A stretch of 64,000 nucleotides of DNA from Escherichia coli (GTDB lineage: Bacteria; Pseudomonadota; Gammaproteobacteria; Enterobacterales; Enterobacteriaceae): assembly GCF_030384885.1 (NCBI RefSeq), contig NZ_CP128613.1; one strand, written 5' to 3'. The notes below the pieces were generated by a model. The model made no database searches and had not been told where the DNA came from. It saw only the letters and a list, made by a program, of their open reading frames with translations. A program made the translations under genes and the position numbers. This document shows positions 975 to 60,624 of the stretch, in pieces. Numbering within the stretch: the first letter of the stretch is position 1; each line of letters begins with the position of its first letter.

Positions 975-1067
975 AAAAAAAACCGGATGCGAGGCATCCG
1001 GTTGAAATAGGGGTAAACAGACATTCAGAAATGAATGACGGTAATAAATAAAGTTAATGATGATAGC
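975..1067 (-). ncRNA. micF: MicF antisense sRNA (represses ompF translation)
   Basis: Minus-strand sequence matches recalled micF (GCTATCATCATTAACTTTATTTATTACCGTCATTCATTTCTGAATGTC ... hairpin + U-run), divergent from ompC. Confidence 0.85.
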
Positions 1068-1221
1068 GGGAGATATTCTAGTTGCGAGTGAAGGTTTTGT
1101 TTTGACATTCAGTGCTGTCAAATACTTAAGAATAAGTTATTGATTTTAACCTTGAATTATTATTGCTTGATGTTAGGTGCTTATTTCGCCATTCCGCAAT
1201 AATCTTAAAAAGTTCCCTTGT

Positions 1222-7381: not shown

Positions 7382-9040
<1,659 letters not shown>

Positions 9041-9075
9041 TGATGTGCCACATCCGGCATGTTATGCCGGATGTG

Positions 9076-9167
9076 GCGTATGCTGATAAGACGCGCCAGC
9101 GTCGCATCAGTCAACCGGCTTGGGCGTTAGATGTCGGATGCGGCGTGACCGCCTTATCCGACCTACG
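9076..9167. repeat. REP / BIME palindromic elements between mqo and eco
   Basis: Two REP-like units (gcgtatgctgataagacgcgccagcgtcgcatcag; gtcggatgcggcgtgaccgccttatccgacctacg) preceded by a hairpin at 9048-9078. Confidence 0.7.
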
Positions 9168-9189
9168 GGGTGGAGCACTTCACGGCAGT

Positions 9190-15937: not shown

Positions 15938-16561
15938 GTGGGTATGCTTGAAGCCAGAGAGTTACTTTGCGAGCGGGATGAACGAACCTTATTTAGTGGC
16001 TTGTCATTTACGCTGAACGCAGGCGAGTGGGTACAAATCACCGGTAGCAACGGCGCGGGGAAGACAACGCTTCTCCGTTTGCTGACGGGGTTGTCTCGCC
16101 CTGACGCAGGCGAGGTTCTCTGGCAAGGGCAGCCCTTGCATCAGGTACGCGACAGCTACCATCAAAACCTGTTATGGATAGGCCATCAGCCGGGGATCAA
16201 AACCCGGCTGACGGCGTTAGAAAATCTGCACTTTTATCATCGCGATGGCGATACCGCACAATGTCTGGAAGCCCTGGCGCAGGCCGGGCTTGCCGGATTC
16301 GAAGATATTCCTGTAAATCAACTTTCTGCCGGGCAACAACGCCGCGTCGCTTTAGCGCGTCTGTGGCTGACCCGTGCCACGTTATGGATACTCGACGAGC
16401 CTTTTACCGCGATTGACGTTAACGGCGTCGATCGTCTGACCCAGCGTATGGCGCAGCATACGGAGCAGGGGGGGATTGTGATTCTGACTACCCACCAGCC
16501 GCTCAACGTTACTGAAAGTAAAATCCGCCGCATTTCACTGACGAAAACGAGGGCCGAATAA
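15938..16561 (+). CDS. ccmA: Heme exporter ATP-binding protein CcmA
   Basis: 207-aa ORF; Walker [10 protein letters not shown]; LSAGQQRR signature. Confidence 0.9.
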
Positions 16562-22224: not shown

Positions 22225-22283
22225 GAACAAGCCCGATGGTGATGCCATTGGGCCAGACTGATGGCAAAGTGCGCTTTGTTTAT

Positions 22284-22381
22284 GCCAGATGCGGCGTAAA
22301 CGCCTTATTCAGCCTACAAAATCGTGCGAACTCAATACATTGCTCGATCCGCGTAGGCCTGATAAGCGTAGCGCATCAGGC
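22284..22381. repeat. REP / BIME pair between ccmH and narP
   Basis: gccagatgcggcgtaaacgccttattcagcctac and inverted cgtaggcctgataagcgtagcgcatcaggc. Confidence 0.75.
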
Positions 22382-22405
22382 AGTTTTGCGTTTGTCATCA
22401 ATATC

Positions 22406-22438
22406 AGCCCGAGGGTAAATCCATCGGGCTATTTTTTT
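22406..22438 (+). terminator. Rho-independent terminator at end of the nap-ccm transcript
   Basis: Hairpin agcccgagggtaaatccatcgggct followed by TTTTTTT; T-run abuts the narP stop. Confidence 0.65.
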
Positions 22439-55054: not shown

Positions 55055-56292
55055 ATGGATATAATGAGAAGTTTGGTGGGTATGGTGGTATTGCTGGCAA
55101 TTGCATTCTTATTGTCAGTGAATAAAAAAGGTATCAGCATACGCACGGTCGGGGCTGCATTGCTGCTGCAAATCGCTATTGGTGGCATTATGCTCTACTT
55201 CCCACCGGGAAAATGGGCAGTAGAGCAGGCGGCATTAGGCGTGCATAAAGTGATGTCTTACAGTGATGCCGGTAGCGCCTTCATTTTTGGTTCGCTGGTT
55301 GGGCCGAAAATGGATGTCCTGTTTGATGGCGCGGGCTTTATCTTCGCCTTTCGCGTACTTCCGGCAATTATTTTCGTCACAGCGCTCATCAGCCTGCTGT
55401 ACTACATTGGCGTGATGGGGCTGCTAATCCGCATTCTTGGCAGTATTTTTCAGAAAGCCCTCAACATCAGCAAAATCGAATCTTTTGTTGCGGTTACCAC
55501 TATTTTCCTCGGGCAAAATGAGATCCCGGCGATCGTTAAACCGTTTATCGATCGCATGAATCGCAACGAGCTATTTACGGCAATTTGTAGCGGGATGGCG
55601 TCCATTGCCGGTTCGATGATGATTGGTTATGCCGGAATGGGCGTACCAATTGACTACCTGTTAGCGGCATCGCTGATGGTATTTTGTTTGCACGTATTCT
55701 TAGCCCAGCCACCGAGCCTTCGCAGGTGACATTTGAAAATCTGTCGTTCAGCGAAACGCCGCCAAAAAGCTTTATCGAAGCGGCGGCGAGCGGTGCGATG
55801 ACCGGGTTGAAAATCGCCGCTGGTGTGGCGACGGTGGTAATGGCGTTTGTGGCAATTATTGCGCTGATCAACGGCATTATCGGCGGAATTGGTGGCTGGT
55901 TTGGTTTTTCCAATGCCTCTCTGGAAAGTATTTTTGGCTATGTGCTGGCACCGCTGGCGTGGATCATGGGCGTGGACTGGAGTGATGCCAACCTTGCGGG
56001 TAGCCTGATTGGGCAGAAACTGGCGATTAACGAATTCGTCGCTTACCTGAGTTTCTCCCCATACCTGCAAACGGGCGGCACGCTGGAAGTGAAAACCATT
56101 GCGATTATCTCCTTTGCGCTTTGTGGTTTTGCTAACTTTGGTTCTATCGGTGTTGTCGTTGGGGCGTTTTCGGCTATTTCGCCAAAACGCGCGCCGGAAA
56201 TCGCTCAGCTTGGGTTACGGGCGTTGGCAGCAGCAACGCTTTCAAACCTGATGAGTGCGACCATTGCCGGGTTCTTTATTGGTTTAGCTTGA
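55055..56292 (+). pseudogene. psuT: Nucleoside (putative pseudouridine) transporter PsuT/YeiM, frameshifted into two ORFs (55055-55729 and 55684-56292)
   Basis: The two ORFs are in different frames and together span 1238 nt versus 1251 nt for intact paralog nupX; by-eye alignment places a 13-nt gap between 55679 and 55680. Confidence 0.7.
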
Positions 56293-56299
56293 GTTTCAT

Positions 56300-56338
56300 T
56301 GCCGGATGTACGCGCTTATTAAGCGTTGCATCCGGCAA
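56300..56338. terminator. REP-like palindromic hairpin between convergent psuT and yeiL
   Basis: tTGCCGGATGtacgcgcttattaagcgttgCATCCGGCAa. Confidence 0.55.
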
Positions 56339-56360
56339 TCGCGCTATTCCAGATTATTTT

Positions 56361-57020
56361 TTACTGCATCATCCCGGAGAATTTATTCTCCGGGTCCATC
56401 TCCAGCGCCAGCCCTAACAACTGCTTTCTGTTTTTAATCAGATACCCTTTCTTGCTTTTAATTAATAAACCGTCATGAATGAATTGCGCGAGAACATATA
56501 AAAGATGTCGATAAGAAACGCCCAAATACTCTGCCGCTTGCGTATGCTTTTCTTGATAAAGATCACCTTCCTGCGAGAGTAATATAAAAGCTGCCAGGCG
56601 ATTCATTAACGGAAATGATTGATTCTGAGTTAAAGAAACAATATTACGATAATTTTTATGACTTAAGGTGACGCAGAGTTTTCGTAAAAATAGCGTATCG
56701 TTTAATAACAGCGGGCGGTAATGTTTCATAGGGAGCGCAAGGCACCAACACTCTTCAATCGCCTGTACCGCTCGTGGTTCATGATCTTTATCGATTAACT
56801 CAATCTCGCCAATAAAACAGGGTGCAGCAAAGAAATCAATCAGCGACACGCGACCATTAGCAAGCGTGGCGTAAAGCCTGGCGCGGCCTCGCGTCAGGTA
56901 AAACAGCCATGACGGCTGTTGCCCTTCCTGCACAATGTAGTCACGCGCTAAAAAATGAAACAGCCGTGTATCGGCTGAAACATCCGTTGAAAAGCAATCC
57001 TTATACGCGGACTCACTCAT
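56361..57020 (-). CDS. yeiL: Crp/Fnr-family transcriptional regulator YeiL (Nsr)
   Basis: 219 aa from ATG at 57018-57020 ([13 protein letters not shown]...); cNMP-binding-like domain and C-terminal HTH. Confidence 0.85.
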
Positions 57021-58229: not shown

Positions 58230-59480
58230 ATGGATGTCATGAGAAGTGTTCTGGGAATGGTGGTACTGCTGGCAATTGCGTTTTTGCTGTCAGTAAACAA
58301 GAAGAAGATCAGCCTGCGTACCGTTGGCGCGGCGTTAGTGTTACAGGTCGTGATTGGCGGCATTATGCTTTGGTTACCGCCAGGGCGTTGGGTCGCAGAA
58401 AAAGTCGCTTTTGGCGTGCATAAAGTGATGGCGTACAGCGACGCAGGTAGCGCATTTATCTTCGGTTCTCTGGTTGGACCGAAAATGGACACCTTATTTG
58501 ATGGCGCAGGATTTATCTTTGGTTTCAGGGTATTACCGGCAATTATCTTCGTTACAGCACTGGTGAGTATTCTCTACTACATCGGTGTGATGGGGATCTT
58601 AATTCGCATTCTCGGCGGTATATTCCAGAAAGCGTTAAATATCAGCAAGATCGAGTCATTCGTCGCGGTCACTACCATTTTCCTCGGGCAAAACGAAATT
58701 CCGGCAATCGTCAAACCCTTTATCGATCGTCTGAATCGCAATGAATTATTTACAGCGATTTGTAGCGGGATGGCCTCGATTGCTGGTTCGACAATGATTG
58801 GTTACGCCGCACTGGGCGTGCCTGTGGAATATCTGCTGGCGGCATCGTTAATGGCTATCCCTGGCGGGATCTTGTTTGCCCGCATGTTAAGTCCGGCTAC
58901 GGAATCTTCGCAGGTTTCCTTTAATAACCTCTCTTTCACCGAAACACCGCCAAAAAGCATTATTGAAGCCGCTGCTACAGGGGCAATGACCGGGCTGAAA
59001 ATCGCTGCAGGTGTGGCGACAGTGGTGATGGCATTTGTCGCCATCATTGCGTTGATCAACGGTGTTATCGGCGGCGTTGGTGGCTGGTTTGGTTTTGAAC
59101 ATGCCTCGCTGGAGTCCATTTTAGGTTACCTGCTGGCCCCGCTGGCGTGGGTGATGGGGGTTGACTGGAGTGATGCGAATCTTGCCGGGAGTTTGATTGG
59201 ACAGAAACTGGCGATTAATGAATTTGTCGCTTACCTCAATTTCTCACCTTATCTGCAAACAGCTGGCACTCTGGATGCTAAAACCGTGGCGATTATTTCC
59301 TTCGCGTTGTGCGGATTCGCTAACTTTGGTTCTATCGGGGTGGTGGTTGGCGCATTTTCTGCGGTTGCGCCACACCGTGCGCCGGAAATCGCCCAGCTTG
59401 GTTTACGCGCGCTGGCGGCGGCGACACTTTCTAACCTGATGAGTGCCACCATTGCAGGATTCTTTATTGGCTTAGCGTAG
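58230..59480 (+). CDS. nupX: Nucleoside permease NupX (YeiJ), CNT family
   Basis: 416-aa intact ORF; close paralog of the psuT reading frames. Confidence 0.9.
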   Translation: MDVMRSVLGMVVLLAIAFLLSVNKKKISLRTVGAALVLQVVIGGIMLWLPPGRWVAEKVAFGVHKVMAYSDAGSAFIFGSLVGPKMDTLFDGAGFIFGFRVLPAIIFVTALVSILYYIGVMGILIRILGGIFQKALNISKIESFVAVTTIFLGQNEIPAIVKPFIDRLNRNELFTAICSGMASIAGSTMIGYAALGVPVEYLLAASLMAIPGGILFARMLSPATESSQVSFNNLSFTETPPKSIIEAAATGAMTGLKIAAGVATVVMAFVAIIALINGVIGGVGGWFGFEHASLESILGYLLAPLAWVMGVDWSDANLAGSLIGQKLAINEFVAYLNFSPYLQTAGTLDAKTVAIISFALCGFANFGSIGVVVGAFSAVAPHRAPEIAQLGLRALAAATLSNLMSATIAGFFIGLA

Positions 59481-59496
59481 TGCGCGAGTTATGAGC

Positions 59497-59530
59497 CGGA
59501 TAAGACGCGGTCAAGCGTCGAATCCGGCAA
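59497..59530. terminator. REP-like palindromic hairpin between convergent nupX and yeiI
   Basis: GCCGGATaagacgcggtcaagcgtcgaATCCGGC. Confidence 0.5.
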
Positions 59531-59535
59531 GATTG

Positions 59536-60624
59536 TTACACCATCGGCACTAATGAAAGCGCGTTATCGGCAGACAGGGTAGGGTTGTTTAAGCTGCCGC
59601 TGGCGCGTGAAATTGCCGCGCAGGCCATCGCAAAACGGGCACTATCACGGAAACTGCTTCCTTCCAGAAAGCTATACACCAGGCCCGCCATAAAACCATC
59701 GTCAGCACCAAAACTGTCTACCGTCGTATGCGCTGGCGCAGTCAGCAAAAATTGTTCGCCATCCTTTTGGCTGCAATAAACAGACTCATCGGGCAAATAA
59801 ACAAACAGTTGCTGAACGCCTTGCTGATGCAACGCATTCACTGCGGCATTACGATCAGCATCGCGGGTTATCGGCTGGCCCCATAAAATTTCCAGCTCCG
59901 GCAAAGTGGGTTTCAGAGTGTGAATATGCGCCAGCCAGTGTTTGATTTTGCCCGCTTTGAATTCTGAAACGGTATCGACAAACACCGGGATTTCATCAGC
60001 GAGGGTAAAGACCCACTCCAGCGCCTCGGCTGTCAGGTTGCAATCAGCCAGTACCACGCCCGCATGACGAAGTAAATCGCGCGACCCGTTCAGTAGTTGC
60101 GGTGTCAACTGATCCAGCAGATGGGTATCGTTAATCGCCAGCACGGTTTGATCGTCTCGATTGGCAATTGCCAGATACGTCGATGTGCTTTGACCATGTA
60201 AACGAACGCAGCCGGAGACATTCACGCCGGCGCGGCGCGTTTCTTCCAGGAGCATTTCGCCATAAAAGTCATCGCCAATCACTGAAAGCAAATGGACGTC
60301 GCGGCCTAACAGCGCCAGATTGTGGGCGATATTGCGTCCAACGCCGCCTGCCGAGCAATGAATTGTACCGGGATGAGAAGCCGCTTGCGGGTAACGGATA
60401 TCCGCCATCCCGCGAATATCCATATTGATTGTCCCCACCACTACGCAGTATTCCTGCTCGGTGAGAATGTAACCTTTGCCTTTAATCCGACCTTTGCGCA
60501 TTAAATCCATAATATGCGCTGCAACACGCGAACGGCTGATTTGCAGCATATCCGCAATTTCGTTCTGCTGAATCAGCGGGTTACGCCTTAATATTGCAAG
60601 GATCTCCTTCTCCCGGTTATTCAT
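59536..60624 (-). CDS. yeiI: Putative sugar/nucleoside kinase with N-terminal HTH domain YeiI
   Basis: 362-aa ORF; N-terminal HTH (EILAILRRNPLIQQNEIADMLQISRSRV) fused to a pfkB-type kinase domain. Confidence 0.85.
   Translation of the reverse strand: MNNREKEILAILRRNPLIQQNEIADMLQISRSRVAAHIMDLMRKGRIKGKGYILTEQEYCVVVGTINMDIRGMADIRYPQAASHPGTIHCSAGGVGRNIAHNLALLGRDVHLLSVIGDDFYGEMLLEETRRAGVNVSGCVRLHGQSTSTYLAIANRDDQTVLAINDTHLLDQLTPQLLNGSRDLLRHAGVVLADCNLTAEALEWVFTLADEIPVFVDTVSEFKAGKIKHWLAHIHTLKPTLPELEILWGQPITRDADRNAAVNALHQQGVQQLFVYLPDESVYCSQKDGEQFLLTAPAHTTVDSFGADDGFMAGLVYSFLEGSSFRDSARFAMACAAISRASGSLNNPTLSADNALSLVPMV

Follow-up and report, generated by a model that had tools for sequence, protein, structure and literature searches.

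REP/BIME elements between three convergent gene pairs of an Escherichia coli chromosome and terminator hairpins repeated beside BIME-1

Background

We report that three intergenic spacers in a 64-kb stretch of an Escherichia coli chromosome (the whole stretch of DNA that was analysed, referred to as the window) very probably carry members of the E. coli REP/BIME family, i.e. short non-autonomous imperfect palindromes of 3' untranslated spacers. The identity and architecture of these elements, their extragenic position between convergent genes and their variation among strains are documented here. Specifically, the spacer between mqo and eco holds a BIME-2, which gains and loses whole tandem units, the spacer between ccmH and narP holds a BIME-1, which is present or absent as a block, and the spacer between yejK and rplY holds a lone Y REP, which is fixed. 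Moreover, BIME-1 units at several loci are bordered on both sides by copies of one terminator hairpin, and we tentatively discuss how such an arrangement might have arisen.

BIME-2 is composed of y and z2 REPs in tandem, with a copy number that differs among strains, while BIME-1 (RIP/RIB) is composed of y and z1 REPs and a long L linker with an IHF site, in single copy (PMC3333891; PMC8266576). Among strains, BIME-1 is known to be present or absent, in contrast to the highly length-polymorphic BIME-2; the sites studied here match this published variation, and that part of our findings is therefore already known (PMC1187871). The TnpA-REP transposase binds and cleaves REP in a strand-specific manner that requires both GTAG and the bulge described for the REP stem (PMC8266576), and how REP/BIME elements arrive at new locations has yet to be fully established (bioRxiv 10.64898/2026.03.23.713779).

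Methods

To locate REPs, both strands were compared with the GTAG-first consensus sequences of Y (35 nt), Z1 (30 nt) and Z2 (37 nt), and matches were scored by semi-global edit distance; REP naming and lengths have been given as y 35, z1 29 and z2 37 nt (PMC8266576). As a measure of chance, the window was shuffled 20 times with its dinucleotide composition preserved, and the best matches were recorded. A simple promoter/terminator scan was too strict for hairpins with mismatches or long loops, and RNA folding was used instead. The RefSeq entry for K-12, NC_000913.3, has no annotated repeat features, and K-12 REP numbers were taken from the supplement of a bioRxiv preprint; REP157 and REP159 are absent from this supplement and these two names were deduced by us.

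For the analysis of BIME-1 borders, species-representative genomes were scanned with a pattern of the BIME-1 right flank (GTTTTGCGTTTGTCATCAATATC), and 48 loci were recovered. Units were delimited by local alignment and orthologues were collapsed, which left 27 independent single-copy loci. As a control for repeats in the flanks we used 702 mismatched left/right pairings.

Results

Five REPs at three convergent junctions

The window is E. coli chromosome with the gene order rcsD-ompC ... mqo|eco ... nap-ccm|narP ... yejK|rplY ... fru, psu, yeiE-lysP, and the sequence closest to it is NZ_CP027579.1 (strain 2013C-4282), which differs by 5 substitutions, a 1-bp indel and a 13-bp deletion. Convergent gene pairs enclose all three sites, with stop codons as follows.

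9038-9040, mqo stop codon
9190-9192, minus strand, eco stop codon
22222-22224, ccmH stop codon
22437-22439, minus strand, narP stop codon
29444-29446, yejK stop codon, convergent with rplY

The consensus scan identified exactly five canonical REPs in the 64-kb window, at 0-4 edits from the Y, Z1 or Z2 consensus. Since the best matches in the 20 shuffles were at least 9 edits away for Y, at least 7 for Z1 and at least 10 for Z2 (overall range 7-12), the five elements lie far beyond chance. Neither the consensus scan nor an inverted-repeat scan detected further REPs in the 64 kb. A preliminary description of this DNA had proposed REP palindromes after mqo, ccmH and yejK and had named a formal consensus scan as the check; all five matches fall at its coordinates, at 0-4 edits compared with at least 7 in shuffles. 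It had also regarded the sites as marking operon ends, in agreement with their location between convergent genes and beside published bidirectional terminators.

The GTAG foot is present in four of the five REPs (9163-9166, 22314-22317 and 29496-29499, all read as CTAC, and 22353-22356). It is missing from the Z2 REP at 9077, which has GTAT instead, and from the relics after psuT and nupX. Minimum-free-energy folds have the REP internal loop or bulge in every copy, with a weakened outer stem in the Y REP at 22283. REP sequences are dispersed: a 210-nt query covering the BIME-1 spacer matches at least 39-74 places per genome (5425 records), and a 651-nt query matches a median of 19 places per genome.

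A BIME-2 of one unit between mqo and eco

9043-9081, terminator hairpin with a perfect 18-bp stem and a 3-nt loop, 3 nt past the mqo stop codon (inverted-repeat scan)
9077-9113, plus strand, Z2 REP, 3 edits (at least 10 in shuffles), fold with a 2-nt bulge
9114-9131, 18-nt tail-to-tail linker from Z2 to Y, recurring at the corresponding position of the tandem units in K-12 and other strains
9132-9166, minus strand, Y REP, 3 edits (at least 9 in shuffles), fold -19.1 kcal/mol, z = -3.85
9167-9189, 23-nt head-side linker that completes the BIME-2 unit and ends at the eco stop codon

The BIME-2 in the window is one 113-bp unit (Z2 and Y, 9077-9189) and the whole spacer measures 149 bp, compared with 714 bp in K-12, in which the annotated counterpart is REP161. 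K-12 has six tandem 113-bp units, each made up of Z2, an 18-nt linker, an inverted Y and a 23-nt linker, and the sampled alleles contain 1, 2, 3, 5 or 6 units in perfect register. Apart from the single unit of the window, these were distributed as follows.

Two units: L007
Three units: L008 and L013
Five units: L010
Six units: K-12, L009, L011, L012 and L014

The one-unit length was observed in 3505 of 5421 genomes. In the nearest relative's two-unit allele both units carry the same lineage-specific base, which points to a recent local duplication or conversion. The degenerate GTAG head of Z2 (GTAT) recurs in the first unit of every allele examined (10 alleles), and the Y REP at 9132-9166 is a locus-specific variant with a compensatory change in the stem (GTCGGAT...ATCCGAC). 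With its Y/Z2 alternation, short linkers and a tandem number that varies among strains, the mqo/eco element is a BIME-2 as defined.

The hairpin at 9043-9081 folds at -27.8 kcal/mol (z = -6.35) and its arms look like REP tail halves (TGCCGGATGTGGCG). As a REP candidate it was rejected, having neither GTAG nor bulge and being listed as a terminator in K-12, where its orthologue is the eco:mqo bidirectional terminator, 9 nt from REP161. The start at 9076 given in the preliminary description thus cuts into a hairpin that is not a REP, while the REP positions themselves stand.

A BIME-1 between ccmH and narP

22231-22254, left terminator hairpin (GCCCGATGG TGATG CCATTGGGC), 6 nt past the ccmH stop codon, fold -16.8 kcal/mol, z = -4.6
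22255-22282, BIME-1 left flank (AGACTGATGGCAAAGTGCGCTTTGTTTA), inverted repeat of the right flank (terminal inverted-repeat alignment)
22283-22317, minus strand, Y REP, decayed, 4 edits, weak fold of -9.3 kcal/mol, z = -1.6
22318-22352, L linker of 35 nt with an IHF-type core (ACTCAATACATTG) at 22330-22342
22353-22382, plus strand, Z1 REP, 0 edits, invariant in five BIME-1 copies
22383-22405, BIME-1 right flank (GTTTTGCGTTTGTCATCAATATC), kept in paralogues
22406-22438, right terminator hairpin (AGCCCGAGGG TAAAT CCATCGGGCT) followed by a T-run, fold -15.2 kcal/mol, z = -3.65

The repeated unit covers 151 bp (22255-22405) and consists of a flank of approximately 27 nt, Y, L, Z1 and a 23-nt flank, with Y and Z1 head to head. 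Its terminal inverted repeats are AGATTGTTGACAAA and the reverse complement of TTTGTCATCAGTCTC, also given as AGAYTGWTGACAAA, and the whole BIME-1 folds as one long hairpin (-65 kcal/mol). The Y-L-Z1 part aligns with four other BIME-1 copies, and the left flank is kept in the paralogous copies at arcC/yqeB, fepA/entD and satP/mog. The candidate IHF core ACTCAATACATTG has one mismatch to the classical consensus WATCAANNNNTTR, as do the K-12 copy and the family consensus. Taken together, the inverted Y and Z1 around L, the single copy and the presence or absence as a block make the ccmH/narP element a BIME-1 by definition. The preliminary description had located it correctly, at 22284-22381; the repeated unit is wider than this and is in addition framed by the hairpins at 22231-22254 and 22406-22430.

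The K-12 counterpart is annotated as REP160, and decay of the element has gone further in the window than in K-12: Y is 4 edits from consensus, L has extra changes and the alignment score is 238 vs 258. In the Y REP at 22283 two stem pairs are broken in the window lineage, while the K-12 copy is canonical. BIME-1 is present at this junction in 1504 of 5425 genomes, and the remainder (72%) have a 34-bp spacer that is 178 bp shorter and in which the left hairpin (22231-22254) is the sole hairpin. When the K-12 spacer is compared with genomes that lack BIME-1 here, the best paralogous match elsewhere extends over spacer positions 31-181 (86-90% identity), which gives a dispersed unit of approximately 151 bp.

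The K-12 orthologue of the left hairpin is a published bidirectional terminator adjoining REP160. On the other side, the right hairpin proper extends over 22406-22430 and its T-run overlaps the narP stop codon. The two hairpins are direct repeats of each other (score 14 vs a null maximum of 12).

A solitary Y REP between yejK and rplY

29465-29499, minus strand, solitary Y REP, 2 edits, fold -19.8 kcal/mol, z = -6.3
29538-29571, bidirectional intrinsic terminator of yejK and rplY (A-run, CCCCGC-loop-GCGGGG, T-run; inverted-repeat scan), fold -17.9 kcal/mol, not a REP

The Y REP starts 18 nt past the yejK stop codon, has a compensatory stem change (GCCAGAT...ATCTGGC) and lies 38 nt upstream of the shared terminator, the K-12 orthologue of which is listed as the rplY:yejK bidirectional terminator. 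From the numbering alone it should be REP159 of K-12. At this junction the simple promoter/terminator scan gave a single odd call, on the minus strand. The junction is conserved in 5423 of 5425 genomes, and in the comparison across strains this REP, unlike the elements at the other two sites, is fixed.

Relics after psuT and nupX

56298-56339, near-perfect hairpin after psuT, without GTAG and without bulge, fold -27.9 kcal/mol, z = -7.4
59492-59529, plus strand, REP relic after nupX, 8 edits from Z2 (at least 10 in shuffles), fold -23.7 kcal/mol

The hairpin after psuT (56308-56337) is 8 edits from Z1, i.e. at chance level, and fails the consensus test, and by alignment it is orthologous to K-12 REP158. 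A four-way alignment suggests that it is the left arm of a first inverted REP fused to the right half of a second. Both alleles appear to be common when judged by identity bands: approximately 2951 records match at 90% or more (window-like) and 2466 at 80-90% (K-12-like).

The relic after nupX combines a Y-type stem, a Z2-like loop and a REP-type bulge with a GTAG that has mutated to TGAG, and in the consensus test its hairpin (59493-59529) is marginal, just better than any shuffle. In K-12, nupX is followed by a two-REP cluster (an inverted Z1-like REP, a linker and a GTAG REP); the window keeps the second of these REPs only, the first REP and the linker being absent. Most of the listed genomes have the spacer length of the window, and a K-12-like subset is approximately 50 bp longer.

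The earlier wording for these two palindromes, related to REP and degenerate, is right by orthology to REP158 and to the two-REP cluster, even though the psuT hairpin fails the consensus test; in both the GTAG head is lost. Its further statements hold as well: the elements are of the REP type (REP161 at mqo/eco and REP160 at ccmH/narP in K-12), they are typical enterobacterial repeats in the sense of ordinary, already described E. coli REP/BIME that match published biology, and strains do differ at these sites by insertions (1-6 BIME-2 units at mqo/eco, BIME-1 present or absent at ccmH/narP).

Terminator hairpins repeated at the borders of BIME-1

In the empty ccmH/narP allele one terminator hairpin is followed by a T-run; in the full allele the 151-bp unit comes after this hairpin, and between the unit and the T-run the hairpin is present once more, in direct orientation. 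The same was observed at arcC/yqeB, where full and empty alleles differ in length by 179 bp, and at satP/mog: empty alleles have a single hairpin and full alleles a pair, each locus with a hairpin of its own. The 48 loci recovered in the pattern scan belong to E. albertii, E. whittamii, other Escherichia lineages and Pseudocitrobacter. Direct repeats in the flanks exceed the 99th percentile of the control in 15 of the 27 independent loci, and at 10 of the 27 they exceed the control maximum. These repeats are 14-30 nt long, each being one whole hairpin; the left repeat lies 0-3 nt and the right repeat 0-5 nt from the unit, with an A-run on the left and a T-run on the right. The pattern has exceptions, e.g. 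fepA/entD.

Insertion of BIME-1 into the loop of a hairpin was considered and rejected, as both flanks are complete hairpins and not halves.

Escherichia sp. MOD1-EC7003 has unit and hairpin modules in tandem arrays of 5-6 copies. More than one kind of hairpin occurs within some of the arrays, and one and the same hairpin was observed on five contigs.

Discussion

Possible functions of the REPs in the three spacers

Published properties of the REP family suggest several roles for the elements described here, each of which would apply by analogy. The REP stem-loops in the 3' untranslated region of each convergent mRNA may impede 3'-to-5' exonucleases, and they may also act as partial, Rho-assisted terminators. 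A dual role as terminators and stabilisers has been put forward for REPs, and convergent pairs with a REP are expressed at higher levels than matched pairs without; the effects vary with context, with no uniform change in half-lives (bioRxiv 10.64898/2026.03.23.713779). At the DNA level, the Y REP of the mqo/eco BIME-2 could be a preferred gyrase site, since y REPs of BIME-2 are cleaved by gyrase (PMC6379681), and the L linker of the ccmH/narP BIME-1 might bind IHF, as has been found for the BIME-1 linker (PMC3333891). The family as such may have been spread and reshaped by the TnpA-REP/RAYT tyrosine transposase acting on single-stranded GTAG-tagged hairpins, and reshaped as well by replication slippage or unequal recombination between units.

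By the same analogy, not all copies in the window would behave alike. The Z2 REP at 9077, which is without GTAG, and the Y REP at 22283, with its decayed stem, are probably no longer substrates for the transposase, and as RNA structures both may be weak. The relics after psuT and nupX should be inert if judged by the GTAG and bulge requirement of TnpA-REP.

It is also possible, if not the more probable reading, that the elements are essentially neutral or selfish remnants that are tolerated in convergent spacers and useless to the flanking genes. In favour of this reading, presence/absence and copy number are polymorphic with no obvious consequence, and GTAG, stems and bulges are decaying in the lineage of the window (Z2 at 9077, Y at 22283 and the two relics). 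That 72% of the genomes manage without the ccmH/narP BIME-1 argues against a strong selected role at that junction, and the genome-wide comparison in the preprint cited above found that half-lives do not differ. The solitary Y REP after yejK speaks for the opposite, being kept in 5423 of 5425 genomes with its pairing retained through a compensatory change. So do the higher expression of REP-bearing convergent pairs relative to matched pairs without REP (bioRxiv 10.64898/2026.03.23.713779) and the binding of gyrase and IHF documented for the family (PMC6379681; PMC3333891).

Origin of the repeated hairpins

For the borders of BIME-1 we tentatively propose that BIME-1 could be an element of approximately 151 bp, bounded by inverted repeats, that inserts at the base of an intrinsic-terminator hairpin and thereby duplicates the whole hairpin (14-30 nt). 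The paired full and empty alleles of the three loci, the flank repeats at 15 of the 27 loci and the arrays of MOD1-EC7003 support this proposal. That this description is correct in all its parts, i.e. real, made by insertion and undescribed before, we consider doubtful; taken singly, we have high confidence that the pattern of flank repeats is real and moderate confidence that the repeats were made at insertion. Our survey of the searchable literature, outside of which key papers of the 1990s lie, gave no description of a hairpin or target duplication at BIME-1, and we do not claim novelty with confidence. Insertion could proceed through nicking at the foot of an extruded structure or, during replication, through a switch to another template and back across the hairpin, and loss of BIME-1 could follow from recombination between the two hairpin copies. 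Both convergent transcripts would then cross BIME-1 and terminate at the far hairpin; the terminator listed beside the ccmH stop codon in K-12 agrees with such termination.

The reverse polarity, in which the allele with BIME-1 is the older one at ccmH/narP and deletions between its two direct hairpin copies, already in place, gave rise to the 34-bp alleles, appears to us somewhat unlikely. It has support from the junction itself: the two hairpin copies offer 9-11 bp of identical sequence for slipped-strand deletion, their loops have diverged, which suggests age, and the BIME-1 is common to K-12, the divergent lineage of the window and the species representative E69. A survey from 1997 reportedly worded such polymorphisms as "Excisions of a whole BIME-1", which favours deletion. 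Deletion accounts for the loss of the unit, but it gives no reason for the presence of a locus-specific hairpin on both of its sides, and the recurrence of this layout at 15 of 27 independent loci, with other hairpins, points to duplication upon arrival of the unit. The duplication by insertion that we tentatively propose, if true, would explain how transcription units can have BIME-1 at their 3' ends and still terminate and, if its footprint is reproducible, would provide a concrete and testable constraint on the insertion mechanism.

Two further readings of the sites

The mqo/eco site matches the Rfam family naRNA4 (RF02564) at 9081-9163 on the minus strand with 60.2 bits, reaching the gathering score of 59.5, and could be taken for the gene of a naRNA4-type nucleoid-associated small RNA, which would bind HU, bridge REP cruciforms and condense the chromosome. 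The naRNA model derives from the BIME-2 REP325, which also has the Z2/Y composition (PMC4550694). naRNA4 is the only Rfam family derived from REP. Since its model is in effect a Z2-Y REP pair, the match supports REP identity and not an RNA gene; the score is a mere 0.7 bits over the threshold, and any Z2-Y pair would do alike. The simple promoter scan detected no promoter-like site near the BIME-2, and a unit number of 1 to 6 among strains is odd for a dosage-sensitive RNA gene. The role of naRNA4 as an expressed, HU-binding RNA has itself been contested in a 2026 preprint (bioRxiv 10.64898/2026.03.23.713779), and we consider a small RNA gene at this site highly improbable.

That the palindromes have no relation to the REP family, being either intrinsic terminators of the adjacent genes or G+C-rich inverted repeats that arose by chance, can practically be dismissed: genuine non-REP terminator hairpins do lie beside all three sites (9043-9081, 22231-22254, 22406-22438 and 29538-29571) and the psuT hairpin matches the REP consensus at chance level only, but five elements are 0-4 edits from a 30-37-nt consensus against at least 7 in shuffles, these five are without T-runs, the simple terminator-pattern scan gave no terminator-like site in the stretches it covered around the mqo/eco and ccmH/narP sites, and REP sequences recur at 39 or more places per genome.

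For practical purposes, labelling the three spacers as REP/BIME helps annotation and marks transcript ends, and differences in assembly and length among strains are to be expected at mqo/eco and ccmH/narP.

Comparison with known systems

The mqo/eco element resembles REP161 of K-12, which is of the same class as REP325 (yjdM/yjdN), in its alternating Z2 and Y, its short linkers and its extragenic position between convergent genes; it differs from REP161 in having a single unit, a Z2 without GTAG and a locus-specific Y at 3 edits. The yejK/rplY REP is a 35-nt bulged GTAG hairpin in a 3' untranslated region like any ordinary solitary Y REP, with nothing notable to set it apart. Similarly, the ccmH/narP element corresponds to K-12 REP160, with Y and Z1 head to head, a 35-nt L, an IHF-type core, a length of approximately 150 bp and a single copy.

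REPIN/RAYT systems share with BIME-1 the GTAG-tagged hairpins in inverted pairs, and the whole BIME-1 as one long hairpin is REPIN-like; the enzyme proposed to mobilise them is TnpA-REP, and the window contains no rayt/yafM gene. In contrast to IS200/IS605 elements, which insert without target duplication, BIME-1 units can be flanked by direct repeats of 14-30 nt. Group IIC introns insert after intrinsic terminators and, like BIME-1, are placed directly beside a terminator stem-loop; as carriers of a ribozyme and a reverse transcriptase they are wholly different elements, and we know of no hairpin duplication caused by them. Finally, BIME-1 shares with MITEs the terminal inverted repeats, a length of approximately 150 bp, the lack of coding capacity, the dispersal and the direct repeats in the flanks. 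Target duplications of MITEs, set by a DDE transposase, are a few bp long and fixed in length (5 bp in one example; PMC3184786), and REPs, according to a 2011 review, "do not display MITE signatures". The repeat at BIME-1 is a whole hairpin of variable length, 14-30 nt, and we therefore do not file BIME-1 as a classical MITE.

Terminator hairpins and BIME-1 units

The 151-bp BIME-1 unit usually lies between two directly repeated terminator hairpins of 14-30 nt, whose sequence is specific to the locus, as seen for the window site together with the compared loci L016, L018, L019, L020 and L021-L068. The copies in the window lie at:
22231-22254, hairpin copy on one side of BIME-1
22406-22430, hairpin copy on the other side
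Empty alleles, i.e. those lacking BIME-1 (three loci), carry one hairpin copy only, and at 15 of 27 independent loci the repeats flanking BIME-1 score above the 99th percentile for mismatched control pairs.

Escherichia sp. MOD1-EC7003 has modules of BIME-1 plus hairpin in tandem, five to six per array and with a period of 167-182 bp, as if unit and hairpin together now act as a repeated module. The arrays are:
L048, 11505-12384
L054, 7459-8292
L067, 6228-7222
L055 and L057, further arrays
Five contigs of this strain share the hairpin AGGCCGAACCCGGCCTC, and the hairpins between units differ within some of the arrays.

A two-unit BIME-2 allele

The mqo/eco allele of strain EC42405 (L007, 342-603) has two BIME-2 units, and this strain is closely related to the window strain (99.0% identity over the query used for L007). 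Both units carry the identical lineage-specific base (CATCAGTCAACC), which indicates that one unit became two by duplication, or that the units were converted, in the recent past.

Divergence and annotation of the window lineage

The window lineage is unusually divergent when compared over positions 1-25000: only two of 5,426 genomes reach at least 99% identity to these first 25 kb, followed by a few at approximately 98%, and the rest of the matches listed go down to approximately 96%. In the three REP spacers, identity to typical strains is 94-96%. Rfam matches at the gathering score were:
975-1068, minus strand, MicF sRNA, upstream of ompC
26102-26175, minus strand, tRNA-Pro
29893-29918, minus strand, L25 ribosomal-protein leader, upstream of rplY

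At 16468, within ccmA, the window has one G more than NZ_CP027579.1, whose annotation marks ccmA as frameshifted; because the window ORF (15938-16561) is intact with the extra G, that frameshift may be a sequencing error. The autotransporter gene yejO (23403-25997) is also intact, and is disrupted by IS5 in K-12. Relative to NZ_CP027579.1, 13 bp are missing at 55676 in psuT, and as this deletion breaks the gene into two ORFs (55055-55729 and 55684-56292), psuT is probably a pseudogene in the window sequence. Finally, psuT and nupX are paralogues, and their 3' ends with the REPs that follow (56200-56372 and 59388-59550) appear swapped or remodelled among strains. Gene conversion between the two paralogues is suggested by sequence comparison, since the psuT end in the window (TTAGCTTGAGTTTCATTGCC) agrees with the nupX end of K-12 and not with its psuT end.
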